Positions 4,880 through 45,270 of a DNA stretch of 45,270 nt are shown here, piece by piece. Made by a program: the position numbers and the translations under genes. The notes under the pieces are model-generated. The model was not told where the DNA came from. It searched no databases and saw only the letters and a list, made by a program, of their open reading frames with translations. The stretch lies in sequence record OQ589852.1; one strand, 5' to 3'. The stretch's first letter is position 1. Every line of letters starts with the position of its first letter. Origin of the DNA: Escherichia phage Ioannina.

Positions 4880-5012
4880 GCCGCCGTGTAAGTTTGAGTC
4901 GCCATCGGAAGATCCGGACGAAGATTTAGCGATTGATGTGCGAAATATGAAATGCGGGGCGGAGTTAAGGGCACAAGTGCTGGATTTGCAGAAATTAATT
5001 AAGGGGCCGTAA
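4782..5012 (+). CDS. Rz1-like o-spanin lipoprotein
   Basis: Signal peptide with lipobox LTAC, Pro-rich mature part with Cys; begins inside Rz in another frame and runs past its stop. Confidence 0.65.
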   Translation: MSRVLIAIIVSLMLTACGSSNVPLMPLTESAIKPPCKFESPSEDPDEDLAIDVRNMKCGAELRAQVLDLQKLIKGP

Positions 5013-5025
5013 TGGCCCCTTTCTA
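5002..5025. terminator. bidirectional rho-independent terminator (AAGGGGCC-loop-GGCCCCTTT)
   Basis: GC-rich perfect stem flanked by A-run and T-run; lies between convergent Rz1 and the minus-strand gene. Confidence 0.7.
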
Positions 5026-5787
5026 TTAGCGCGGAATACCGCAGATTTCGTTTAGTGTCTTCACGTCAAGCGCTACTGCCGTTGACTTCTTCTCTTCCTG
5101 CGGGATGAACTGTTTCACTTCAGGCCATGCCTTAATAAGTTTGGTGTCTGTAGTGTACTTATTCAGAGTACCCATAACTGACAATTTAAACTCATCGTAT
5201 TTAGCACGTAAATCGCGGCGCGCCTTGTCGTTCTTATCCAGACGTTTGCAAAATTCATGCTCTGCCGGGTAATCTGCACGACCGCGAGGCTTGTAGATCG
5301 GCACTTGCTCACCTTCCGCGTTAATTTCCACCAGCGCCGTAAGTAGCGCAGTTTCAAACCCAGGTACGATTTCGCCAATGTCCGGGGCCATCGAGTTATT
5401 GTAGCGGTCTTCCCAGTAGCCTCGGTGACAGCGGCTGCTGTAGTTATCACCGCTCAATGACAGTGTGCGGATGTTACCACCCATGTTGACTTCGAACGTT
5501 GCATCGTACACAGCACCAATGCCGTGGGGCATGTCCTTGTTATGGCTGAAGGTTGCACGGCTGGCGTACACGCTTATGCTAAACATGCCGTTATTTGTGT
5601 CTTGATAGCTGCGCATCATTTTCTGCAACCCAACGAAGCTGGTAACACCTTTCGGCATCTGATCCAGAGTGATATCCAGCGCCAGGTCGCGCGATTCGGT
5701 CATTAACTTTTTGGCCTGCTTCGTGATTTCGTGGCCTGCCAGGATGTTAGCCAGGATTTGCTTTTTAATGTCTTTAGTCAGTCTCAT
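5026..5787 (-). CDS. hypothetical protein, early-promoter-driven minus-strand gene inside the structural module
   Basis: About 253 aa from MRLTKDIKK with GAGGAAACAACA RBS; own promoter upstream and own terminator downstream; no recognisable motif. Confidence 0.5.
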   Translation of the reverse strand: MRLTKDIKKQILANILAGHEITKQAKKLMTESRDLALDITLDQMPKGVTSFVGLQKMMRSYQDTNNGMFSISVYASRATFSHNKDMPHGIGAVYDATFEVNMGGNIRTLSLSGDNYSSRCHRGYWEDRYNNSMAPDIGEIVPGFETALLTALVEINAEGEQVPIYKPRGRADYPAEHEFCKRLDKNDKARRDLRAKYDEFKLSVMGTLNKYTTDTKLIKAWPEVKQFIPQEEKKSTAVALDVKTLNEICGIPR

Positions 5788-5810: not shown

Positions 5811-5885
5811 TGCAACCAATATATTGCAACCAATTAGCCAATGCAAGCAAATTTTGTGATTATTTTTATCACTGATAATATTAAG
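5811..5885. promoter_or_regulatory. divergent promoter region with tandem TGCAACCAAT repeats
   Basis: Minus strand reads TTGCAT-N17-TATATT, overlapping two ATTGGTTGCA copies; plus strand has TTGTGA-N16-TAATAT upstream of the scaffold gene. Confidence 0.55.
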
Positions 5886-11429: not shown

Positions 11430-11440
11430 TTCCGGCCTTT

Positions 11441-11770
11441 TTCATAGCGGGACAGCGGGACGTCCCGTTTTTATCCCGCTGTCCCGCCCAGCCAAAAACT
11501 GCATACCTATTCAGAAATACTGCATAAAACCAAAACGGGACAAAAACGGGACAAGCAGGACGTCCCGCCTCAAAAGTGCATATCTATGCAGTTTTCGTGC
11601 ATAAAACGAACGGGACAAAAACGGGACAAATTGCAAGCGGGACAGAGCGGGACGTCCCGCCGTCCCTGCCAGAGCTGCCGCGGGTTTCAGCCGATCGGGA
11701 CAGGCGGGACAAAGCCCAGTCTTTCAGACTAGACGGGGGTCAATGGCCCCCTCCGTCTGAGACTGAATAA
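11441..11770. repeat. GGGACA iteron-like array plus conserved hairpin, copy 1
   Basis: At least ten CGGGACA/GCGGGACA units in both orientations, GGGACGTCCC palindromes, TGCATAAAAC boxes and the inverted repeat CAGTCTTTCAGACTAGACGGGGG…CCCCCTCCGTCTGAGACTG; about 180 bp nearly identical to 40205-40380. Confidence 0.8.
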
Positions 11771-11832
11771 GGTTGGTTGCAAAATGACTGATACAATACA
11801 AACGGCAACTTGCATAAAAAGGGGACTGCATA

Positions 11833-14475
11833 ATGGCAGATCAAGCGGCAGGCATCACGCTAAAGGCGGATGTTGCACAAATCAGAACGGCGAATACTGT
11901 GCTTGATTCATTCGCACAGAAATCAGAGAACACAGAAAACAAGGTTAAGAAATTAAACAACACCCTCGGCAACTCTAAAAAGGTGACGAGTGATGCCGCT
12001 GGCGGAATGGAAAAGCTGGCGAACGAATCGCATCGAGCAGCCGATGGCATGACGAAACAGGAGCGACTCGCCAACCGGTTAGGCATGTCGACCAAAAACC
12101 TGGGCTTTGCCTCGCGTAACGCCGCATTCCAGTTACAGGATATAGCGGTTACGCTTGAGATGGGTATGCCGGTGCACCGCGTCATGCTTCAGCAGTTACC
12201 ACAGCTTACTGGGGCGTTCGGTGGGTTTGGTAACACGCTGCGTTATGTTGCTGGCTTCCTCGGCCCAGTAGGGATCGGAATTGCAGCACTAACGGCAACG
12301 TTAGGCGTAGGGGTGGCAATTACGTCACGTGCCGAAAACCAGGTAGCAGCGCTTAACAAGACGCTGGCGCTATCCGGTAACATTTCCGGCCTAACTGCAA
12401 ACCAGATCCTGGTGCTATCCGAGAACGCCGAGCGCATGGGCGGGTCGTTCCGCAAGACGCGTGACACAATCCAGGCGCTGGCGGCGGCGGGTGTGAAAGC
12501 GGGTGCAGACTTCGGCACGCTGGCGAAAGTGGTGAATGATTTTGCGAAGGCGTCCAGCCAGCCGATCGAGGATGTGGTCGCGGCGGTGGCGAAGCTGTCT
12601 ACCGACCCGGTAGGTGGCTTGCGAGCATTGGCTGATAAGTATCACGTCGTAAACGAAGCGCAGATCCAGCAGGTGCAGTCACTAGTGACGGCTGGTCGCG
12701 AAACCGAAGCGGTGGCGCTGGCTAACAAAACAGCCGCAGCGTCGTTTACCACTATGACCAATGAGATCAAGTCCAACATGGGTACGCTTGAGCGGTCGAT
12801 GAACGTCGTTACATCGGCAGCTAAATCTATGTGGGATGCCATCCTGGATGTTGGACGCGCGCAGTCCTCGAATGAGTCAGAGATGAAAGCGCGTGAATCA
12901 TTGCAGCGACTGACCACGGCTTACTATGCCGAGATGAAAGCGGTAAACGCTGCCGGTGGGGTGATGACCGAAGCGCAGAAATCGCGTATTAACATGCTTT
13001 ACAGCGAACTGGTCGCCCAGGAGAAGGTGGTGGCGTCGCTCACCCTGCGCAACCGTGCCGAGCGGGACAACGCCAGCGCCGCGGACGCAGCAGCAAAGGC
13101 GAACGAAGAGGCAAACCGCACCGCCCGCGACCGCGCTGCGTTTGAGAAGGAGTACGCAACCAACGCGAAGAGGCGCGCCGACGAGATCGCCCGCCTCAAT
13201 TTGCTTAATAAGCGCGGCGTGATTGACGAGAAAGAGCTTGCCGAGGCGGTGAAGCAGGTAAACGAGCGTTACAAAGACCCCGCCCCGAAGAAGGCCGCCG
13301 CTGTTCGAGTCGATGCCGGGCTGAAAATGCTGGAAGTAGCACGGAGCGAACTGGCACAGCTTCGTGAGTCTGGAAAGCAGATCGAAGCCAACTCCTCGAC
13401 GCAGACCCGAACGCAACGCGCGCAAGCGGCCCTGAACAAGCTGATCGCGGATAATGAGCAGTTAATCGCCGCAAGCAAAGAAAGAGCACTAACGGCAGCC
13501 GAAAAGCAGCAGATGGTCGAATTCGGACGCGTGAAGGAAGTACGCGAGCAGATCGTCGAAGAAGCCAAATTGCTGGACGCGAAAGAGAAGCAGGTCAAGG
13601 CGCACGTGCAGATCGACGCCTTCGTTAAGAACCAGAACGCCGAGCTAAAAGCCACCGCGGCGGGCTATGCGCTTTCCACTCGCGAAGCGGCAAACCTGCG
13701 TGAAGAATTGCAGCTAATTGACCGCCTGAAGCGGGTGGGCGCTAGTGATACCGATATTGATCTGGCGGTGTCTAAACTGCGCGAAGTGCAGGAAGCACAG
13801 ACCGGTGCTAACGCCTCACTATGGGATGGATTCAGCCGTGGGCTTAAGGATAGCGTGGATGAAATGGGTAACGGCTATACGCAGATGGTATCGGCAACGA
13901 AATTTACATTCGGCGCTATGATGGACACGATGAATGAATTTTTCGAGACTGGTAAATTCAACGCGAAGGAAATGATTAAATCCATCCTGAGCGAATTTAT
14001 CAAGCTGGCTACCTCGCAGGCGTTCAAGTCCGTAATCAACGCATTCGGCGGTGACGGTGGGAAGAATGGTCTGTTCGGGGCAATCTTCTCCGGTCTGACG
14101 AAGAATGCCGACGGAGGAGCGTACGCTGGCGGCAACCTGTCCGCATATTCCGGTCAGATCGTAAGCCAGCCAACCTTTTTCAATTACGGCGTTAAGGCGT
14201 TCGCTAACGGCGCGGGATTGATGGGTGAGGCTGGGCCGGAGGCCATCATGCCGCTGAAGCGCGGGCCGGACGGTAAACTGGGCGTTGCCGCAAGTGGGGC
14301 TGGTGGTGGAATCGTCGTGACAACGAACGTGAACATGGGTACAGGGCAGGCTTACACCAGCGTTAAAGGGACCGACCCGCGAATGGGGCAGGTATTCGGC
14401 AAGCAGATCACGGAAGCGGTTAAGGCCGAAATCGTGAAAGCGACTAAACCAGGTGGAGTACTTTACAAACGATGA
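11833..14475 (+). CDS. tail tape measure protein
   Basis: 880 aa, long Ala/Gln/Glu-rich coiled coil, Gly-rich C-terminal part; downstream of G/GT. Confidence 0.9.
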   Translation: MADQAAGITLKADVAQIRTANTVLDSFAQKSENTENKVKKLNNTLGNSKKVTSDAAGGMEKLANESHRAADGMTKQERLANRLGMSTKNLGFASRNAAFQLQDIAVTLEMGMPVHRVMLQQLPQLTGAFGGFGNTLRYVAGFLGPVGIGIAALTATLGVGVAITSRAENQVAALNKTLALSGNISGLTANQILVLSENAERMGGSFRKTRDTIQALAAAGVKAGADFGTLAKVVNDFAKASSQPIEDVVAAVAKLSTDPVGGLRALADKYHVVNEAQIQQVQSLVTAGRETEAVALANKTAAASFTTMTNEIKSNMGTLERSMNVVTSAAKSMWDAILDVGRAQSSNESEMKARESLQRLTTAYYAEMKAVNAAGGVMTEAQKSRINMLYSELVAQEKVVASLTLRNRAERDNASAADAAAKANEEANRTARDRAAFEKEYATNAKRRADEIARLNLLNKRGVIDEKELAEAVKQVNERYKDPAPKKAAAVRVDAGLKMLEVARSELAQLRESGKQIEANSSTQTRTQRAQAALNKLIADNEQLIAASKERALTAAEKQQMVEFGRVKEVREQIVEEAKLLDAKEKQVKAHVQIDAFVKNQNAELKATAAGYALSTREAANLREELQLIDRLKRVGASDTDIDLAVSKLREVQEAQTGANASLWDGFSRGLKDSVDEMGNGYTQMVSATKFTFGAMMDTMNEFFETGKFNAKEMIKSILSEFIKLATSQAFKSVINAFGGDGGKNGLFGAIFSGLTKNADGGAYAGGNLSAYSGQIVSQPTFFNYGVKAFANGAGLMGEAGPEAIMPLKRGPDGKLGVAASGAGGGIVVTTNVNMGTGQAYTSVKGTDPRMGQVFGKQITEAVKAEIVKATKPGGVLYKR

Positions 14476-20690: not shown

Positions 20691-20696
20691 AACGCA

Positions 20697-20718
20697 AGGG
20701 GCCGTTTGGCCCCTTTCT
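20697..20718. terminator. bidirectional rho-independent terminator (AAGGGGCC-loop-GGCCCCTTT)
   Basis: Same stem family as 5002-5025 and 25167-25190; between convergent J and the minus-strand gene. Confidence 0.7.
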
Positions 20719-21935: not shown

Positions 21936-21975
21936 CTTAAATATAGTGCAACCAATACGTGATTGCAACCAATTT
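21936..21975 (-). promoter_or_regulatory. early-type promoter (TTGCAA-N17-TATATT) with tandem ATTGGTTGCA repeats
   Basis: Read on the minus strand: ATTGGTTGCAATCACGTATTGGTTGCACTATATT; drives the lipoprotein cassette. Confidence 0.55.
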
Positions 21976-21991: not shown

Positions 21992-24016
21992 ATGGCAGCG
22001 GGTACACTTAACGTAACAAACAACAGCAAGGCCGTAACGGGGTCGGGCACGACGTTTACGTCATTGAAAGCGGGCGACTTTTTATCGCTGGTGGTGGGGC
22101 AAGTCCCGTACACCGTCGCGATTGAGTCAATCCAGAGCAACACGGCGCTTACGCTGGCGCTGCCGTTTGACGGCCCAACGTCTACCGGTCTGGCGTGGGA
22201 CTCCGTATCCCGCGATACGATGTCGCTGGCGACTATGGGTGTGACCGTACAGGCGCAGAAAGCGCTACGCATGTTGATTGCTGACGAAAGCAACTGGCGA
22301 GCAATCTTCGGCGACGCAGAGCAAATCAGCGTGACACTGCCAAACGGCACGGTTATGCAGGGTATGTCGTGGGGCTATTTGTCCAGCCTTCTAAAAGACG
22401 TCGATCCGGTTGAGCTTCAGAATATTGCCAACCAGGCGGTTAACGCTAAAAACCAGGCTGTAACGGCGAAGAACGACGCCGTGTCTGCTAAGAACGATGC
22501 GCAGACTGCGAAGACTGCCGCAGAAACAGCGCGCACACAGGCCCAGTCGGCTAAGACCGCCGCAGAGTCAGCACGTGACGACGCGCAGACGGCTAAGACT
22601 GCCGCAGAAACAGCACGCACCCAGGCACAGACCGCGAAGACCGCCGCAGAAACCGCCCAGGGTGCGGCGGAAGACGCCCGCGATGAGGCGAAGCAATATG
22701 CAGAGCAAGCCGGAGCACCATATAAGCAGGTATTACAACCGCTACCAGACGTGTGGGTTCCGTTTAACGATTCGCTGGATATGCTCGCAGGCTTCGCGCC
22801 AGGATACAAGACGGTTACGGTAGCCGACGACGAGGTTATTATGCCTAGCGACAAGGTGGTGTCGTTCAAGCGCGCATCAACGGCAACATATATTAACAAG
22901 TCCGGCGAGTTTAAAATCGCAGATATTGACGAGCCGCGGTTCGAGAAATACGGCCTGCTTATCGAAGGCCAGCGCACTAACCACATCACCAACGGGGGCG
23001 CTCCGGCTGCCTGGGGCCGCAGCACATCGGTTGGAGTGGTTACGGGTACAGATGATTTCGGTTTCTTGTATGGAAAGTTTGGTATCGGCCAGGGCGACGT
23101 GGGCAGTACGACTGCGCGTAACCTGGCTTCCGTAACATCAGTAAACAGTCTGGATACTTCCGGCGACGATAAGTATGTAACGGCGTCATGCCGCTTTCGG
23201 TCCGACAAGGATGTACGTCTTCGTGTGCGTTTTGCAGAAGGCGCGGATCAAGGCAGCATAGCTTTCTCTGGCGACGCGTACATTAAATTAAGCGATTTGT
23301 CCGTGTCTAAGACGGGTGTCGCGGCAGACCGCATTACCGTAGAAGTAGAGAAAGACGAAGCCACCGGATGGAATCGTGCGGTGGTAATGCTGCAAGCTAC
23401 CACGGCGCTGGTGAACGCGCAGATCCAGATCTCGCCAGTGAGCAGTTATGCTGCCGGTGATTATATCGAACTGGCAACTCCGCAGGTTGAGTTAGGGATC
23501 GGGGCGTCTTCATATATAATCTCCGGAACATCTCCAACCACACGCGCCAGCGATATGGTGACGGTACCGGCTAACCGCAACCTGTATAACCTGCCGTTTA
23601 CGGTGCTTGTAGAAGCGCACAAGAACTGGTCTAAGGCGCCGAACGCAGCGCCGCGTGTATTCGACACCGGCGGTAATCAATCGGGTGCGGCTATTATCCT
23701 TGGATTCGGGTCTGGCGCTATTGACGGGTATCCGTACTGCAACATCGGCAGTGCTAACGGACGTGTGAGTGAAAACGCAGGGCTTAAGCATATGGTTATG
23801 GGTATGCGTGTGAAAGAAAACCAGAACACTTGCGCGGTGAGTAACGGCACTCTTTCGACCGAATCTAAAACCACATGGACCTACCTGCAAGGGTCTGCAA
23901 CGCTGCGAATCGGCGGGCAGACCACGAACGGAGACAGACACCTGTTCGGGCACGTCCGTAACTTCCGTATCTGGCATAAAGCACTGACCGACTTACAAAT
24001 GGGAGAATTAGTATGA
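21992..24016 (+). CDS. tail fiber protein
   Basis: 674 aa; fiber-type N-terminal module, Ala/Lys/Thr/Gln coiled-coil repeats (AKTAAETARTQAQ x4-5), beta-rich C-terminal domain. Confidence 0.75.
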   Translation: MAAGTLNVTNNSKAVTGSGTTFTSLKAGDFLSLVVGQVPYTVAIESIQSNTALTLALPFDGPTSTGLAWDSVSRDTMSLATMGVTVQAQKALRMLIADESNWRAIFGDAEQISVTLPNGTVMQGMSWGYLSSLLKDVDPVELQNIANQAVNAKNQAVTAKNDAVSAKNDAQTAKTAAETARTQAQSAKTAAESARDDAQTAKTAAETARTQAQTAKTAAETAQGAAEDARDEAKQYAEQAGAPYKQVLQPLPDVWVPFNDSLDMLAGFAPGYKTVTVADDEVIMPSDKVVSFKRASTATYINKSGEFKIADIDEPRFEKYGLLIEGQRTNHITNGGAPAAWGRSTSVGVVTGTDDFGFLYGKFGIGQGDVGSTTARNLASVTSVNSLDTSGDDKYVTASCRFRSDKDVRLRVRFAEGADQGSIAFSGDAYIKLSDLSVSKTGVAADRITVEVEKDEATGWNRAVVMLQATTALVNAQIQISPVSSYAAGDYIELATPQVELGIGASSYIISGTSPTTRASDMVTVPANRNLYNLPFTVLVEAHKNWSKAPNAAPRVFDTGGNQSGAAIILGFGSGAIDGYPYCNIGSANGRVSENAGLKHMVMGMRVKENQNTCAVSNGTLSTESKTTWTYLQGSATLRIGGQTTNGDRHLFGHVRNFRIWHKALTDLQMGELV

Positions 24017-25166: not shown

Positions 25167-25190
25167 AAGGGGCCAAACGGCCCCTTTTTC
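25167..25190. terminator. bidirectional rho-independent terminator (AAGGGGCC-loop-GGCCCCTTT)
   Basis: Separates the plus-strand late module from the minus-strand early module. Confidence 0.7.
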
Positions 25191-25764
25191 ATTGTGCGGA
25201 TTCCCAGTCTATCTTTCGGCGTATTGTAGGACTTTCGAAATACTCTTTGCCGTCTACTTCAACCAAAGGCCAGTCGTTCACAATGGCGTATGGATCTGCG
25301 ACCTCTTCGATTATGCCGGTGGCTTTATGCTGACCAAACTCTACCAGCACCAGAATCACCCCGGCAACGTGACGCTCCATATACTCGTATGCGCAACGTG
25401 CTTCAACCAGACCGCGACGGATGCCGGTAGTGGCCTTCACTTCGTACGACCAGACGGCATCAATAACCTGGTCTTTGTAATCCGGCCCTACTTTCACTTT
25501 GCGCTTACCCAGCATTACCACATCGCCACGGTTCATGGTGTTGCCGCTAAATAATCCGGTGCGCTGGAGTAAGCCTTGCGGGATGCAACTGCGACCGCCG
25601 GTTTGCCCTTCCAGATACATCCCTGCGAACATCTCGCCCAGTACACCAACGAGACGGCTTTGCTTGCACGCGTCGGAACGGTTACGCCAGTAGTCAAACT
25701 CAATGCTTGCAATCAACGATGCCAGATGAAATGCTTTGCCAGATAATTCATATTCACCGTACAT
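25189..25764 (-). CDS. putative PD-(D/E)xK-type nuclease
   Basis: 191 aa; GPDYKDQVIDAVWSYEVK fits a PD…(D/E)xK signature; last gene of the leftward early operon. Weak call. Confidence 0.3.
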   Translation of the reverse strand: MYGEYELSGKAFHLASLIASIEFDYWRNRSDACKQSRLVGVLGEMFAGMYLEGQTGGRSCIPQGLLQRTGLFSGNTMNRGDVVMLGKRKVKVGPDYKDQVIDAVWSYEVKATTGIRRGLVEARCAYEYMERHVAGVILVLVEFGQHKATGIIEEVADPYAIVNDWPLVEVDGKEYFESPTIRRKIDWESAQ

Positions 25765-25808: not shown

Positions 25809-26279
25809 TTATTTAAGTGCGCGAGTTACCAGTGTTTTTTCCATATTGCGGAAGTCTTCCTCGGTCATCTGGATTTTCGACCCGTCTTCACCGTACAGCG
25901 TCACCAGCGGTTGAGCTTTCGCTAAAACTCCCTTCGGCAGCGACCACGCATCAACCTGTTTCTTCAGGCTTTCCAACTGCGCTGCCGTTACGTCGATCTG
26001 GATCTCGTCATGCACAGTTGTGTAAGACTCACCCAGTAGCGCGGAATATGCCACTAAATCCACAATGTTATCTTCCTGGTGTTTACGGGTCTGGCGTACC
26101 AGCTTCAGGCAAATCATAAATACCCAGGCTTCTTGCTCGGTAAGGTCACGACCGGTTAGTGCGTTGAATACGGCAGCGATCTGTTTAGCGCTGCGTTCTT
26201 CTTTGCTGTCATATCCATTTTCTTTCCCGCGCTGTTCCATAGTGGTGGCGGCGTTTTTGCAGTATTCGAATGCTTTCAT
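25809..26279 (-). CDS. putative MazG-like nucleotide pyrophosphohydrolase
   Basis: 156 aa, all-alpha character; segment LKLVRQTRKHQEDNIVDLVAYSALLGE resembles the MazG/HisE family. Weak call. Confidence 0.3.
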   Translation of the reverse strand: MKAFEYCKNAATTMEQRGKENGYDSKEERSAKQIAAVFNALTGRDLTEQEAWVFMICLKLVRQTRKHQEDNIVDLVAYSALLGESYTTVHDEIQIDVTAAQLESLKKQVDAWSLPKGVLAKAQPLVTLYGEDGSKIQMTEEDFRNMEKTLVTRALK

Positions 26280-26321: not shown

Positions 26322-26356
26322 GTTAATATAGTGCAACCAACCTATTGGTTGCAAGT
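26322..26356 (-). promoter_or_regulatory. early-type promoter containing perfect palindrome TGCAACCAA-N4-TTGGTTGCA
   Basis: Minus strand reads TTGCAA-N18-TATATT; the palindrome looks like a dimer operator. Confidence 0.55.
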
Positions 26357-27500: not shown

Positions 27501-27954
27501 GACCTGGATCTATCGCGTATAAAGGGACTTTATTGCCGGTTTTCATAACGCGCTGGACGCGCTTTGACTCCTCGGCGCTCATTGGGCGCATATCAGTGCT
27601 ATAACCACCGTTTGATGTGTGCCGCCACGCTATCAGCACCAGATCTTTCCGGTCGATCTTAGACTGGCGGCCCTTCGGTCGCACGTACGCCTCGGCCCGT
27701 TTGCAATGCTCGCGCAGACCTTCGGCAGTGATGCGGTTTAGTGCAACGCTGGTTGTGTATCCGGTGCGCTGCATAATCCCCATCAATTCGAAAAGCAGTT
27801 CGAAGCGCTCCTCTAACTCCTTGCGCACCTTCTCCTCACCTTCATAGCTCGCAAGGTAGGTGTCTGCCAGCGCGTTCGCACGTTCGGCCTGTTCGCGGGC
27901 TTCGAGGCATTGCGCGGCCCAGTATGCTTTTTCTTCTTGTAAAATTTTCATCGT
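27487..27954 (-). CDS. hypothetical protein
   Basis: About 155 aa from MKILQEEKAYW with GGAGA RBS; coiled-coil-like; early-type promoter directly upstream. Confidence 0.4.
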   Translation of the reverse strand, partial: TMKILQEEKAYWAAQCLEAREQAERANALADTYLASYEGEEKVRKELEERFELLFELMGIMQRTGYTTSVALNRITAEGLREHCKRAEAYVRPKGRQSKIDRKDLVLIAWRHTSNGGYSTDMRPMSAEESKRVQRVMKTGNKVPLYAIDPGHAEE

Positions 27955-27997
27955 GTTGTCTCCAGGTATTAAAAAGGGCGTTCCCTTCAGAACACCC

Positions 27998-28032
27998 CCA
28001 ATATAATGCAACCAATCTCGCAATGCAACCAA
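27998..28032 (-). promoter_or_regulatory. early-type promoter (TTGCAT-N17-TATATT) with tandem ATTGGTTGCA repeats
   Basis: Minus strand: ATTGGTTGCATTGCGAGATTGGTTGCATTATATT. Confidence 0.55.
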
Positions 28033-30754: not shown

Positions 30755-30958
30755 TTATTCGCGTTCTTCACGATAGCGGCGCTGCCGTTCTCGTTCGGCC
30801 TTGTTCCGGCACGATTTACACTGCGCACGATACCCGTCGGGGCTACGTGCTGTTTTGCCAGTGTACTTATGAAATTGCGATAGCGGTTTAACACAGCCGC
30901 ATTGGCTGCAACGTTTTTCTTCAATCATCTTAAATGCCTCGTTAGTCCTAACCTGCAC
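30755..30958 (-). CDS. zinc-ribbon protein
   Basis: CSQCGC…CKSCRNK (two CxxC pairs), basic C-terminus. Confidence 0.4.
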   Translation of the reverse strand: MQVRTNEAFKMIEEKRCSQCGCVKPLSQFHKYTGKTARSPDGYRAQCKSCRNKAERERQRRYREERE

Positions 30959-30967
30959 ACTATAACT

Positions 30968-31246
30968 TTATGCGACCAATTCCGCAACCAATAAATCAGC
31001 GTCGTGAATGTTGTCGATTACGCGAACGTCGGCCCCGCGCTTCGCCATGCGCTCATGTTCACGTACCTGGTGCGGCTTCGGCTTACCACCGGGGCGCTTC
31101 ACTTCAACGAATACGACTCTGCCGTTGATGATGATAATCAGGTCGGGAGCGCCGGTACGCCCTTCCCATGCCATTTTACGGCAGAATCCACCTGCCTCTT
31201 TTACCTCTTTCATCAGGTGACTTTGCATCTTGCCCTCAGGAGTCAT
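30968..31246 (-). CDS. VRR-NUC domain nuclease
   Basis: 92 aa; GAPDLIIIINGRVVFVEVKRPGG is a PD-(D/E)xK core of VRR-NUC type. Confidence 0.65.
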   Translation of the reverse strand: MTPEGKMQSHLMKEVKEAGGFCRKMAWEGRTGAPDLIIIINGRVVFVEVKRPGGKPKPHQVREHERMAKRGADVRVIDNIHDADLLVAELVA

Positions 31247-34482: not shown

Positions 34483-34578
34483 TTTCCAATTCCTCATTTC
34501 ACATGTATCGGGGTTATTAGAAGCCACCCCGTCCGGCTTGGTTGCTAATGTACTTGGTTGCGTTTCCGCGGTCAAGTG

Positions 34579-37225: not shown

Positions 37226-37269
37226 TGGTGTGTCTCCGTTTAGTTAAAAGTGAATGTCGTTTCGACGAG

Positions 37270-37305
37270 GTGAATAATAGATTGGTTGCAGGATGGGTGT
37301 CAACA
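37270..37305 (-). promoter_or_regulatory. leftward early promoter (TTGACA-N18-TATTAT)
   Basis: Consensus -35 hexamer on the minus strand, with a TGCAACCAAT copy in the spacer. Confidence 0.6.
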
Positions 37306-37414
37306 ACTAATTTAAAAAAAAAATCCCCGAAGCAAAACGCAACGGGGATAACCATAAGAGACAATGAGACTGGTTTTATTATTACACGCGCGCGCACCCG
37401 TTTCAATATACAAA

Positions 37415-37450
37415 ACAGTTGACACCGGTTTAATTTGGGTGTAGTTTCTT
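37415..37450 (+). promoter_or_regulatory. rightward promoter for the HTH regulator and primase operon (TTGACA-N17-TAGTTT)
   Basis: Plus-strand TTGACA about 55 nt upstream of the ATG; GGTGTCAAC…GTTGACACC inverted repeats flank the divergent region. Confidence 0.5.
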
Positions 37451-37477
37451 TGGTCATTAACCAACAGGAGACGGATT

Positions 37478-37807
37478 ATGAATATCAACGAAGCAATTGA
37501 AGTGTTATCTAATGCAATCCGCGGCGAGACGGGTAAATCCTGGTATTACACGAATGCGGTGGGTACTCTGCTATTTGAGGTGTCCCGATTATCGCGTGTC
37601 GAGAAAGAGCTTACCGCCAAACTTGAATTGCTGAACGGTACGGCGGCGAGCAAGCTGCAAAAGCATAACGAAGAAATGGAAGAATACAAAAAGCAGGTTA
37701 TCAGACTGCGTGAAGAAGGTAAGTCCTGGGCGATGATTGCCGAGTTAACGGGTATTAATCAGAGCACCGTTCGTTCTTGGGTCCGCAATACTAAAACTGC
37801 TAAGTAA
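37478..37807 (+). CDS. HTH DNA-binding regulator
   Basis: 109 aa; C-terminal helix-turn-helix (SWAMIAELTGINQSTVRSWV); first gene of the rightward operon beside the divergent promoters. Confidence 0.6.
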   Translation: MNINEAIEVLSNAIRGETGKSWYYTNAVGTLLFEVSRLSRVEKELTAKLELLNGTAASKLQKHNEEMEEYKKQVIRLREEGKSWAMIAELTGINQSTVRSWVRNTKTAK

Positions 37808-40087: not shown

Positions 40088-40175
40088 TTGCGCGCATTGG
40101 TTGCCAATATGGTTAATTTGTGCGCGCATTGGTTGCCGGATTGAGCATTAAATTCATATCGTATTGGTTGCCGTG
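40088..40175. repeat. three direct repeats of (GCGCGC)ATTGGTTGCC spaced about 34 bp
   Basis: Immediately downstream of the primase-helicase stop. Confidence 0.7.
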
Positions 40176-40204
40176 TAGTGTTAAAGAAGTGAATAATTAT
40201 GCAA

Positions 40205-40380
40205 AATACGTGCATAAAACAAACGGGACAAAAACGGGACAAACGGCAAGCGGGACAAAGCGGGACGTCCCGTCGTCCCCGTCAGTCGTGGCGCGGGTTT
40301 GAGGCAAACGGGACAAGCGGGACAGACCACAGTCTTTCAGACTAGACGGGGGGTATTGTCCCCCCTCCGTCTGAGACTGC
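40205..40380. repeat. GGGACA iteron-like array plus conserved hairpin, copy 2
   Basis: Collinear with 11591-11770 (TGCATAAAAC, ACGGGACAAAAACGGGACAA, GCGGGACA-AGCGGGACGTCCCG, CGCGGGTTT, hairpin CAGTCTTTCAGACTAGACGGGGGG…CCCCCCTCCGTCTGAGACTG). Confidence 0.8.
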
Positions 40381-40529
40381 ATAAAATCTCTGGTTGCATA
40401 ATCAACGGCAGCATAGTGAAAAATGCGGCGGGGGTAGATCTCGGCAACCAATGCGAGTTGAAGAGTGGAGAGTGAAAAATGCAGTTTGCAATTGCAACTC
40501 ATAGCGATCAGCATTTTCATGCGCGTGAT

Positions 40530-40575
40530 TAATATTGGTTGCATCCAGCCTGGCACCTTGCTATATTGGTTGCAC
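40530..40575 (+). promoter_or_regulatory. early-type promoter (TTGCAT-N17-TATATT) with ATTGGTTGCA repeats
   Basis: Plus strand: ATTGGTTGCATCCAGCCTGGCACCTTGCTATATTGGTTGCAC, about 30 nt upstream of the ATG at 40596. Confidence 0.55.
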
Positions 40576-40595: not shown

Positions 40596-40901
40596 ATGAG
40601 AGCATTAATCTGGAATTACACAATGGCTGTGGCGAAGCTGTACGAAGCGAAGCACACAAACGGCAACGCAGACGACGCGCGCCAGGCTGTCATCCTGGCC
40701 CAGCAGGGAATCATGAACGCGTTCGACAATATGTTTGCCAGCCTAGACGAACTGGAACCGCTGCGCGTGGCAATCTGCGAATATGCGATGGCATTTGCCC
40801 GTGAACGCCTGGCATACCGGTTTGGTATCGGGAAAACGGCAGTGGCTAACATCGCCCGCATTCAGGCCCAGCGTGAGCTGCACGCCATACTCGCGAAATA
40901 A
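40596..40901 (+). CDS. hypothetical protein
   Basis: 101 aa, alpha-helical; no motif. Confidence 0.4.
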   Translation: MRALIWNYTMAVAKLYEAKHTNGNADDARQAVILAQQGIMNAFDNMFASLDELEPLRVAICEYAMAFARERLAYRFGIGKTAVANIARIQAQRELHAILAK

Positions 40902-40910
40902 GGGGCCAAA

Positions 40911-41180
40911 ATGGCACGCAGACGCGCTCAATGGCTTTCATGGCACATTCCCCTACATAGCATCCGTTTATGGGCGCAGAACGCGATTGAGGGCGATTCT
41001 GTGTTCTGGAGCTATCGGGATGACGTCAAGCCGCTGACGCAGACCAGAAAGCTGCACCAGTTCATGAACGAACACGGACTGCCGGTGAAAACATCATTGC
41101 AACCAATCGGCATCCGTATTACATTACGCCGTAAGCCAATCGTTGAGCAGGTTGGCAAACACAGGAGACTGACAAAATGA
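40911..41180 (+). CDS. hypothetical protein
   Basis: 89 aa, basic. Confidence 0.35.
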   Translation: MARRRAQWLSWHIPLHSIRLWAQNAIEGDSVFWSYRDDVKPLTQTRKLHQFMNEHGLPVKTSLQPIGIRITLRRKPIVEQVGKHRRLTK

Positions 41181-43697: not shown

Positions 43698-43728
43698 CAA
43701 GCCCGCAACTATGGCGGGCTTTTTATTG
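43698..43728 (+). terminator. rho-independent terminator
   Basis: AGCCCGC-AACTATG-GCGGGCT followed by TTTTTATT. Confidence 0.65.
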
Positions 43729-43780
43729 CTTGACTTGCAACCAATTAATAGCTCATACTTCTGTCGCCGTGGTATATTGA
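43728..43780 (+). promoter_or_regulatory. promoter region (TTGACT plus TGCAACCAAT; downstream TATATT)
   Basis: TTGACTTGCAACCAATTAATAGCTCATACT and a TATATT hexamer upstream of the ATG at 43812; exact -10 unresolved. Confidence 0.4.
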
Positions 43781-43811: not shown

Positions 43812-44954
43812 ATGCACCCTCAAACCAAAATTACAGACGAGCAGTTGATCGCCGAAATCCAGGCGGGAACGACCGCGAAAGATATTGCTAAGAAATACGG
43901 GATTGCACTGCGCAATGTTTATATGCGCAAAGCACGCTTATCTAAAAAGGGGATTGGGCACGGTAACGATGCCGTAATTCGTAAGCGGGTTGCCGATGGC
44001 TTCGGCGTGAAACGTGTATCCGCCCTGGTACGAGGCAATGGCGAAGAGGTCATGTCGTGGGTTATCACCGAGCAGGACAAAGAGCGCCAGCTTGAGGCGA
44101 TGCGTGCAGTGCTGGACGGCATGAACAGCGAAATCACACCGGCAGCACCCGTAAGCGCGCCACCAGTCCCGATCCAGGCGCTGGACCTGCTAAACCTGTA
44201 CACCGTGTCCGACTTCCACCTGGGGATGCTGGCATGGGGAGAAGAGACTGGCGAGGATTGGGATATGGCTATTGCCGAAGACCTGTTCTACCGCTGGTTT
44301 GTCGAAGCCTTTGCCCGCGCCCCGGATGCCGGAACAGGCGTGATTAACATCCTCGGTGATATGGCCCACTTTGACAGCCTGGATGCCGTTACCCCCGCAA
44401 GTGGTCACGTCCTGGATGCCGATACCCGCTATCAGAAGCTGGTGCGCTACATGATTCGCATGGTCCGCCGCGTTGTCGAACTGGCATTGCAGAAACACCA
44501 CAAGGTTAAACTGCTAATCGTGCAGGGCAACCATGACGAAAGCGGTATGATCTGGCTGGCGGAGATGTTCGCTACGCTGTACGAGAACGAGCCGCGCGTT
44601 GAGGTGGATACGTCGCCGGATGTCTATAAGATGGTCCAGCACGGTAAGACTACGCTGTTCTTCCATCACGGGCACAAGGCTAAATTCGACGCTATCGAGC
44701 CGGTCATGATTTCGAAATTTCGTGAGGCGTTCGGATCCAGCCAGTACAGCTATGCTCACGTAGGACACCTGCACCACCAGAAGATTATCGAATCGCGCAA
44801 CATGATTGTTGAACAGCACCGCACGCTTGCCGCGAAGGATGCCTACGCCAGCCGAGGCGGTTGGATGAGCGGACGCAGTGCAAACGTGATAACCTATAGC
44901 GCGAACTACGGTGAAGTAGCACGCTTAACCATTAGCCCGGAGATGTTGAAATGA
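43812..44954 (+). CDS. HTH domain fused to calcineurin-like metallophosphoesterase
   Basis: N-terminal HTH (TAKDIAKKYGIALRNVYMRKARL); metallophosphatase motifs GDMAHFD, GNHDE and HHGH. Confidence 0.55.
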   Translation: MHPQTKITDEQLIAEIQAGTTAKDIAKKYGIALRNVYMRKARLSKKGIGHGNDAVIRKRVADGFGVKRVSALVRGNGEEVMSWVITEQDKERQLEAMRAVLDGMNSEITPAAPVSAPPVPIQALDLLNLYTVSDFHLGMLAWGEETGEDWDMAIAEDLFYRWFVEAFARAPDAGTGVINILGDMAHFDSLDAVTPASGHVLDADTRYQKLVRYMIRMVRRVVELALQKHHKVKLLIVQGNHDESGMIWLAEMFATLYENEPRVEVDTSPDVYKMVQHGKTTLFFHHGHKAKFDAIEPVMISKFREAFGSSQYSYAHVGHLHHQKIIESRNMIVEQHRTLAAKDAYASRGGWMSGRSANVITYSANYGEVARLTISPEMLK

Positions 44955-45171: not shown

Positions 45172-45200
45172 CAGGCCCGCTTACGCGGGCTTTTTTGTGT
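45172..45200 (+). terminator. rho-independent terminator
   Basis: GCCCGC-TTAC-GCGGGC followed by TTTTTTGTG. Confidence 0.65.
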
Positions 45201-45270
45201 CTGCAATTCTCCCTGATATAATCGTGACAGGTGGTTGGGCCACCTCCTATGTTGCCGATGGTCGGCGCAT

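Follow-up and report, generated by a model that had tools for sequence, protein, structure and literature searches.

A conserved short site embedded in the non-structural promoters of a Dhillonvirus genome is a candidate operator for a phage-encoded regulator

The 45,270-nt stretch of DNA analyzed here (the window) is a complete Dhillonvirus genome that starts at the small terminase gene. As judged from the sequence, its source is Escherichia phage Ioannina or one almost identical to it; the 109-aa product of 37478-37807, for example, is 100% identical to an Ioannina protein. Dhillonviruses are virulent coliphage siphoviruses of the HK578-like type, and the hosts across the group are Escherichia, Shigella, Salmonella and Sodalis. 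The genome is collinear with those of the BASEL phage PaulFeyerabend, Sodalis phage SO-1, HK578 and WFI. At 26325-26354, on the minus strand, lies a promoter-like site (P3) consisting of TTGCAA and TATATT hexamers separated by 18 bp, upstream of a DUF6378 gene starting at 26279 and of the next gene, 25189-25764. Within it, at 26332-26353, a preliminary description of this DNA had identified a perfect palindrome, TGCAACCAA-CCTA-TTGGTTGCA, which is exact in the sequence and invariant in 6/6 genomes compared.

The repeated unit is the 10-mer ATTGGTTGCA. The genome contains 12 exact copies of it, whereas an order-3 Markov model predicts 0.11, and it ranks among the two 10-mers with the greatest over-representation genome-wide. 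When one mismatch was allowed, 21 matches were found across the whole genome, compared with 3.7 expected, and none of 100 shuffles scored as high. The core, TTGGTTGC, was matched 22 times (2.2 expected; again 0/100 shuffles as high), and 20 of these matches make up ten promoter-like sites, P1 to P10, and an array of three direct copies and one inverted copy past the primase-helicase gene. The other two were placed outside the family: the match at 11772/11773 is unconserved in relatives, that at 13156 lies in the tape-measure gene, and both appear to be due to chance or coding. The longer pattern TTGCAW-N17/18-TATATT occurs five times (0.01 expected), at 5818-5846, 21940-21968, 26325-26354 and 28000-28028 on the minus strand and at 40539-40567 on the plus strand. 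A separate enrichment of AGAAAGAG/CTCTTTCTC was rejected as a motif and attributed to coding of Glu-Lys-Glu. The genome-wide family put forward in the preliminary description is thus far more frequent than base composition predicts (12 exact copies vs 0.11 expected; 0/100 shuffles), although that description missed the sites at 34537-34575, 41097-41125 and 40096-40452. A generic sigma-70 scan gave no overall excess of promoter-like matches (12-17 vs 8-15 expected), and the promoter family is distinguishable only through the motif. Information content is restricted to A-TTGGTTGC-(A/C); the flanks are uninformative, which indicates that the recognized unit is asymmetric and about 9-10 bp long.

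All ten sites, as well as the rightward early promoter PR, contain two hexamers resembling TTGACA and TATAAT at a separation of 17-18 bp, and a ribosome-binding site and ATG follow every -10 hexamer after 25-75 nt on the same strand. P8 and P9 lie directly 3' of terminators, and a terminator lies directly 3' of P4. In class A, comprising P2, P4, P5, P6 and, with a degenerate upstream copy, P1, the -35 hexamer is provided by a forward copy of the motif, ATTGG-TTGCA(A/T/G), at about -40 to -31. A second forward copy usually abuts the -10 hexamer (ATTGGTTGCAnTATATT, approximately -23 to -14; P1, P2 and P4) or overlaps it (TATATTGGTTGCA, approximately -9 to +1; P1 and P5). Compared with the sigma-70 consensus, the class A hexamers TTGCA(A/T) and TATATT match at 4/6 and 5/6 positions, respectively, with a 17-bp spacer, and these promoters should already be functional with host sigma-70. 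Class B (P8, P9, P10 and PR) is near-consensus, with a canonical TTGAC(A/T/C) -35 hexamer and inverted copies only. In P3 and P7, the -35 hexamer is the TTGCAA of an inverted copy, and in P3 an extra forward copy at -23 to -14 completes the palindrome.

Among the class A promoters, P1 (5811-5850, minus strand) has TTGCAT (5846-5841) and TATATT (5823-5818) separated by 17 bp, a degenerate copy on the -35 hexamer, and forward copies abutting the -10 hexamer (5834-5825) and covering the -10 and +1 positions (5820-5811); it faces a minus-strand Nmad5-domain gene with its ATG at 5787. P2 (21940-21973, minus strand; TTGCAA-N17-TATATT) has forward copies on the -35 hexamer (21973-21964) and in the spacer (21956-21947) and serves a phage lipoprotein gene (ATG 21910) and a DUF6453 gene; its spacer copy is unique to the present phage, the relatives having the -35 copy alone. 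The two forward copies of P4 (28000-28033, minus strand; TTGCAT-N17-TATATT), on the -35 hexamer (28033-28024) and in the spacer (28016-28007), are 17 bp apart, upstream of a gene starting at 27951. On the plus strand, P5 (40534-40574; TTGCAT-N17-TATATT) has forward copies on the -35 hexamer (40534-40543) and over the -10 and +1 positions (40565-40574) and precedes an operon starting at 40596. The weaker site that had been noted near 30960-31000 does belong to the family as P6 (30959-30992, minus strand; gene starting at 30928), with TTGCGG-N17-TATAGT as its actual hexamers and degenerate forward copies, ATTGGTTGCG at 30992-30983 and ATTGGTCGCA at 30980-30971. P7 (41097-41125, plus strand; TTGCAA-N17-TACATT) is internal to the 40911-41180 gene and includes an inverted copy (41098-41107); the gene downstream of it starts at 41177.

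For two of the class B promoters, a TTGCA -35 hexamer drawn from the motif had been assumed; both instead have a TTGAC -35 hexamer, with the inverted motif inside the spacer. These are the leftward early promoter P8 (37274-37303, minus strand; TTGACA-N18-TATTAT), whose inverted copy at 37281-37290 (plus strand) falls at approximately -23 to -14 and whose target is the first leftward gene, starting at 37226, and P9 (43730-43759, plus strand; TTGACT-N18-CATACT), directly past a terminator at 43699-43721, with an inverted copy at 43736-43745 after the -35 hexamer and a metallophosphoesterase gene at 43812 as its target. P9 is replaced by unrelated sequence in some relatives. P10 (34537-34575, minus strand; TTGACC-N17-TACATT) has two inverted degenerate copies (GCAACCAAG), one on either side of the -10 hexamer, upstream of a gene for a single-stranded DNA-binding protein (ATG 34482). 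PR (37419-37447, the unit extending to 37465, plus strand; TTGACA-N17-TAGTTT) has a weak but invariant inverted copy, TTAACCAAC, at 37457-37465 in the 5' untranslated region (UTR) of the 37478-37807 gene.

Across these promoters, copies occur at positions from -40 to +12 and in both orientations; their spacings range from 9 to 35 bp, with no sign of helical phasing. Direct repeats are spaced by 12, 14, 17, 31, 32 or 35 bp (tandem copies 9 bp apart occur in distant relatives), and the other loci have single copies or inverted pairs flanking the -10 hexamer. Such variability of position, orientation and spacing is typical of operators and not of an element recognized by the polymerase. Two-fold symmetry at a fixed half-site spacing is found at 26332-26353 only, and the proposal of a dimeric regulator acting on a palindromic operator therefore does not extend to the rest of the family.

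Several features adjoin these promoters. Two to three nucleotides past the -10 hexamer of P4, a terminator hairpin with a T-run begins (27971-27997, minus strand). Because the P4 start would fall inside the 5' arm of the hairpin, read-through from upstream would terminate and P4 transcripts would escape, and the predicted structure is an overlapping terminator-promoter insulator. At P4 of one relative (L002, 26949-26999), three tandem 17-bp units (ATTGGTTGCATAATCAT) are found; duplication of this unit, which consists of the motif, one nucleotide and a hexamer, generates a -35/-10 pair with a 17-bp spacer and is thus a simple route to new promoters. Just upstream of P1 is a palindrome, GTGATTATTTTTATCAC, at 5856-5872, nearly invariant in relatives with one arm base varying (GTGAT/GCGAT); in this divergent region, flanked by the Nmad5 and scaffold genes, it may be a second operator or a site for a host factor. 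The cargo of P1 differs by phage (in the window it is the Nmad5-domain protein at 5026-5787, in SO-1 a RusA-like protein and in HK578 an unrelated open reading frame; the relatives' regions compared were L003 5082-5600 and L004 5078-5500), and P1 has the appearance of a fixed slot from which accessory genes are expressed. The relatives L002 (36424-36683), L003, L004 and L005 contain a conserved insert of about 150 nt that separates P8 from the first leftward gene; it is absent from the window (37226-37274), is annotated as a tiny coding sequence in one record and could be a structured leader RNA. Finally, a promoter-like site at 37406-37378 (minus strand) is followed by a strong terminator with a T10 run at 37349-37314, and the predicted leftward transcript of about 50 nt, which may be a small RNA, sits between the two early promoters (37314-37406); the segment TTACACGCG(T/C)GCGCGCCCGTTTCAATAT there is nearly invariant in relatives.

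The structural genes had been described as lying outside the family, and their likely promoter bears this out. Directly past a terminator at 45173-45192 and upstream of terS is an extended -10 element, TGATATAAT (45214-45222, plus strand; TGTTATAAT in relatives), which is likely to be the structural-operon promoter and from which the motif is missing in all genomes inspected. A conserved 5' leader, TATGTTGCCGATGGTCGGCGCAT, follows it.

The array begins directly past the stop codon of the primase-helicase gene, where three direct copies of ATTGGTTGCC on the plus strand start at 40096, 40128 and 40163 (the last ending at 40172), 32 and 35 bp apart; an inverted copy of ATTGGTTGCC lies on the minus strand at 40443-40452. 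No convincing promoter features were detected at 40096-40172. Together these copies bracket an origin-like block of CGGGACA repeats, which is part of a 178-nt repeat present both in the gap before the tape-measure gene (11440-11760) and past the primase-helicase gene (40187-40364), the two being 83% identical and densely filled by direct repeats of CGGGACA(A) together with GGGACGTCCC palindromes. In the relatives L018 and L036, the same region contains GGGGTGCCA/TGGCACC repeats instead, and ATTGGTTGC is unchanged. The CGGGACA/GGGGTGCCA repeats are probably origin iterons that co-evolve with a replication protein.

The copies hardly vary across at least 20 related genomes, some of them at only about 67-72% gene identity. 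In five annotated relatives, they are invariant at syntenic positions and the intervening DNA has changed. We also retrieved 15 loci from IMG/VR via the protein encoded at 37478-37807, and hence free of selection for the motif; every TTGGTTGC match in them is one of the syntenic sites, and per-column conservation is about 100% in the copies and 0.4-0.9 in the P5 spacer. The sites are therefore more conserved than the surrounding non-coding DNA at orthologous positions. Even the -10 hexamers vary (TATATT/TAGATT in P5, TATTAT/TAATAT/TATCAT in P8 and TA(C/A/G)ATT in P10). In P7, which lies within a coding region, the third positions of TTG CAA CCA are invariant and neighboring wobble positions vary. 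The most distant relatives, L018 and L020 (67-72% gene identity), L035 and L036, keep the core at the same syntenic promoters with its arrangement reshuffled; two tandem inverted copies 9 bp apart fill the P8 spacer, for example, or P5 has a P4-like layout. L018, L020 and L035 further have a full inverted copy, (T)GCAACCAA, beside the ribosome-binding site in the 5' UTR of the gene corresponding to 37478-37807, which hints at autoregulation. An exact motif pair at 17-bp spacing was found in IMG/VR only on Dhillonvirus contigs of 42-45 kb, and nothing close to the P3 palindrome was found in 5,426 E. coli genomes. Constraint exceeding that on the hexamers, both orientations, varied positions and spacings, and an array with no convincing promoter features together point to a protein-binding site, rather than to a polymerase element or a copied cassette. 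The idea of a host RNA polymerase promoter class with an embedded protein site stands in this form: the family is sigma-70-like and its site is more constrained than its hexamers, while its activity is predicted from sequence. Two parts of the family qualify the idea: the array at 40096-40172, at which promoter features are not convincing, and PR, a canonical TTGACA promoter whose sole copy is the weak one in its 5' UTR.

When we scanned about 30 non-structural proteins against the Pfam, PHROGs and NCBIfam profiles, the only DNA-binding domain was the helix-turn-helix (HTH) of the 109-aa protein encoded at 37478-37807 (plus strand), the first gene of the rightward early operon and directly upstream of the primase-helicase gene. 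Pfam matches included HTH_23 (1e-6), Sigma70_r4_2 (1.3e-6), HTH_28 and others. The Sigma70_r4_2 match scored 28.4 bits (cut-off 25.7) and overlaps the equally good HTH_23 and HTH_28 matches; the NCBIfam model for region 4 of extracytoplasmic function (ECF) sigma factors (TIGR02937) matched at 7e-5 with 22.5 bits, not reaching the curated cut-off of 42.9. An AlphaFold model (predicted local distance difference test score of 87) contains a helix at residues 3-14, a long helix at 21-79 (59 residues), which probably dimerizes, and an HTH formed by residues 84-91 and 95-107. Foldseek comparison with the Protein Data Bank (PDB) gave weak generic HTH matches at E ~1 (LuxR/GerE, resolvase, IstA and DeoR), and a PDB sequence search gave only generic HTH or coiled-coil matches. 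Like the motif, residues 47-106 (the HTH among them) hardly vary among homologs, and residues 1-45 are hypervariable or mosaic. The only full-length remote homolog (P0025 of L036, 40% identity) accompanies the same motif. Of the two proteins proposed earlier as HTH regulators, this one is upheld by the profile matches and the model. The other, encoded at 43812, belongs to a metallophosphoesterase or 'DNA repair exonuclease' family, and the profile scans detected no HTH in it.

We infer promoter activity, protein binding and repression from the DNA and protein sequences. The explanation that we favor, and to which we give roughly an even chance, is that A-TTGGTTGC-(A/C) is the site of a phage-encoded regulator, probably the 37478-37807 protein, that represses sigma-70-type promoters of non-structural genes. 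The most probable binder would be this 109-aa protein, with its long helix and a C-terminal HTH of the sigma-region-4 or LuxR-GerE type. The site would be built into essentially every non-structural sigma-70-type promoter of Dhillonviruses; the promoters that have it serve replication, modification, early, lysis and accessory ('moron') genes. Copies over the -35 hexamer (approximately -40 to -31), in the spacer next to the -10 hexamer (approximately -23 to -14) or over the -10 hexamer and start (approximately -9 to +4) would allow occlusion of host RNA polymerase, and since protein bound at any of these places would exclude the polymerase, repression is the simplest reading. As it accumulates, the 37478 protein would turn down the early and middle promoters, probably also, by way of the 5'-UTR copy, that of its own gene. 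Because its extended -10 promoter is copy-free, the structural operon would be spared, an arrangement compatible with the shut-off of early and middle genes. Around the origin-like repeats, the array (40096-40452) would provide a roadblock, an insulator or a binding sink.

Several observations weigh against this explanation. A rigid coiled-coil dimer is not obviously suited to direct repeats at many spacings, and other small proteins without recognizable domains could be the binder. Covariation between HTH and motif is not available, both being conserved, and the recognition helix of the L036 homolog differs (STVRSWVRN vs STIKNWIYRK) with the motif unchanged. With a reported latent period of about 10 min (PMC11430396), feedback would have little time to act, and no transcript 5' ends, binding data or genetics were found in the literature for any Dhillonvirus. 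Forward copies are stereotyped at -40 to -31 in five promoters, and orientation tracks the type of -35 hexamer (forward with TTGCA, inverted with TTGAC), a pattern that an activator or dual regulator would show as well.

These last two points, together with a late promoter that does not rely on a -35 hexamer, are equally compatible with a dual or activating role; we regard an activator or a form of sigma appropriation as unlikely. The forward box at -40 to -31 would then act like a T4 MotA box or class II activator site, recruiting polymerase or replacing sigma region 4 at TTGCA 'middle' promoters, and inverted copies in TTGAC promoters would repress the early ones in a dual switch resembling that of phi29 p4. 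The position and orientation of the forward copy are constant in P2, P4, P5 and P6 and recognizable in degenerate form in P1; distant relatives show the same pairing of orientation with -35 type; the HTH has a weak similarity to region 4 of ECF sigma factors; and the late promoter is of the extended -10 type, independent of -35 recognition. However, TTGCA(A/T)-N17-TATATT, with optimal spacing, should already be a competent sigma-70 promoter, and the second copy in the spacer or over -10/+1 at most such promoters should block polymerase. No match to the MotA or AsiA family was found among the scanned proteins, and the sigma-region-4 similarity falls under the family cut-offs (TIGR02937) and is generic to HTH folds.

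A more specific variant, which we consider doubtful, is that the 109-aa protein mimics sigma region 4 on its own, recognizing a -35-like box (the TTGCA in ATTGGTTGCA) and imposing a three-state program on host polymerase. Canonical TTGAC early promoters would be blocked through inverted boxes, TTGCA-box promoters would be taken over or tuned through forward boxes, and the extended -10 late promoter, needing no -35 contact, would be left untouched. If true, a single protein and a single 10-mer would give a small virulent siphovirus a switch akin to sigma appropriation. The family itself is real and conserved, and it is conceptually unsurprising unless this mimic reading holds.

It is similarly doubtful that no dedicated regulator exists and that a strong host promoter cassette, with ATTGGTTGCA as one of its parts, has spread by duplication, recombination or gene conversion. 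Such a history would explain a 38-nt repeat common to P1, P2 and P4, the tandem 17-bp unit that creates its own -35/-10 pair (three units in L002) and the placement of P1 ahead of different cargo genes in different phages. It would not explain why copies point either way and take up many different positions with respect to the hexamers, why they are present in TTGAC promoters of canonical type, which have no need of them, in the array at 40096-40172, where promoter features are lacking, and in 5' UTRs, or why conservation is higher in the copies than in the -10 hexamers and spacers.

Still less probable is a role as replication elements. An initiator or helicase loader (the HTH protein beside the primase-helicase) would bind the copies, those at 40096-40452 would mark an origin, and those at promoters would serve to link transcription with replication. 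The HTH gene is indeed directly upstream of the primase-helicase gene, and the 3+1 array brackets an iteron-rich block that is an annotated repeat region in the SO-1 GenBank record. Yet 16/20 conserved copies are dispersed at promoters over 38 kb and only those at 40096-40172 are clustered beside replication genes, as iterons would be; moreover, the CGGGACA/GGGGTGCCA family, which changes by lineage while ATTGGTTGC does not, is the better candidate for origin iterons. The CytR half-site contains GTTGCA, and binding by a host transcription factor such as this flexible LacI-family protein, whose octamer has that sequence in common with the core and which tolerates variable spacing and orientation, is very improbable given that the invariant part includes TTGG, outside the octamer, that the motif pair in IMG/VR is confined to contigs of Dhillonvirus size, that nothing near the P3 palindrome occurs in the E. 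coli genomes searched, and that the hosts of the group span four genera.

In function, the family is similar to the global operator networks of L5 and RK2 and possibly to the promoter-class switches of T4 and phi29, and by sequence it belongs to none of these systems. L5 is a temperate mycobacteriophage whose immunity repressor, gp71, also binds stoperators, sites that share one orientation inside transcription units and at which elongation is blocked. Like the L5 operator and stoperators, the present motif is a short, asymmetric candidate site for an HTH protein, with many copies (20 conserved copies of a non-palindromic 9-10-mer) at promoters and between genes, suited to genome-wide control; unlike L5, the phage here is virulent and most copies lie on core promoter elements in both orientations, only the 40096-40172 array having the stoperator arrangement. 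No sequence relationship to the L5 gp71 system, which PMC11447400 cites (ref. 43), was detected. The KorA/KorB system of plasmid RK2 (IncP) is similar in that the operator of one small HTH protein is present in most promoters at differing positions, with negative control and autoregulation, but its operators are palindromic and plasmid-borne, whereas the site described here is not symmetric and in many cases itself contributes the -35 hexamer. In the middle promoters of T4 (MotA/AsiA) and the p4-controlled promoters of phi29, as here, a box at or near -35 and a good -10 hexamer mark a promoter class in a virulent phage. These phages illustrate that one protein can switch promoter classes and that extended -10 promoters escape -35-mediated control. 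The Dhillonvirus motif occurs as a forward box at -40 to -31 in five promoters but, unlike in T4 and phi29, it is also found in spacers, over -10 hexamers and in 5' UTRs, and a usable TTGCA -35 hexamer is retained; no MotA, AsiA or p4 homolog was found among the scanned proteins.

A parallel among related siphoviruses is the unexplained 21-nt direct repeat aaATAGCACnnnTTGnTAAAA of the T1-like phages (TLS, T1 and Rtp), an intergenic repeat in genomes with few other recognizable promoters, for which stoperator, enhancer or UP-element roles were suggested (PMC11447400). Both families lie upstream of genes, and the T1-like repeat differs in its sequence, in its location about 76 nt before start codons, in being always co-oriented with transcription and in having no candidate binder. 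The Ioannina genome paper (PMC11430396) does not mention promoters, and a literature search covering the motif, Dhillonvirus or HK578 promoters, RNA sequencing and the SO-1 repeats returned nothing relevant. In the HK578 record, the only promoter annotations are three generic sigma-70 promoters within the divergent region; two repeat regions are annotated for SO-1. The ATTGGTTGCA family is thus apparently an undescribed regulon, no description of it having been found in the searchable literature. Dhillonviruses are common coliphages, represented in the BASEL reference collection and used for studies of defense systems and therapy, and their transcription program has so far been unmapped. The present analysis offers a concrete map for it that can be tested: eleven sigma-70-type promoters, ten with full or near-full copies of the motif, one copy-free late promoter and a single candidate regulator. 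The putative operator is short enough to be mutated or to be reused as a compact regulated promoter part.

Elsewhere in the window, three near-identical bidirectional terminators (AAGGGGCC...GGCCCCTT) at 5001-5021, 20696-20716 and 25167-25187 sit where plus- and minus-strand gene blocks converge. A 42-nt tandem repeat with at least four copies lies within the lateral tail-fiber gene (22464-22673) and is probably a coding repeat of the collagen-like or coiled-coil type.

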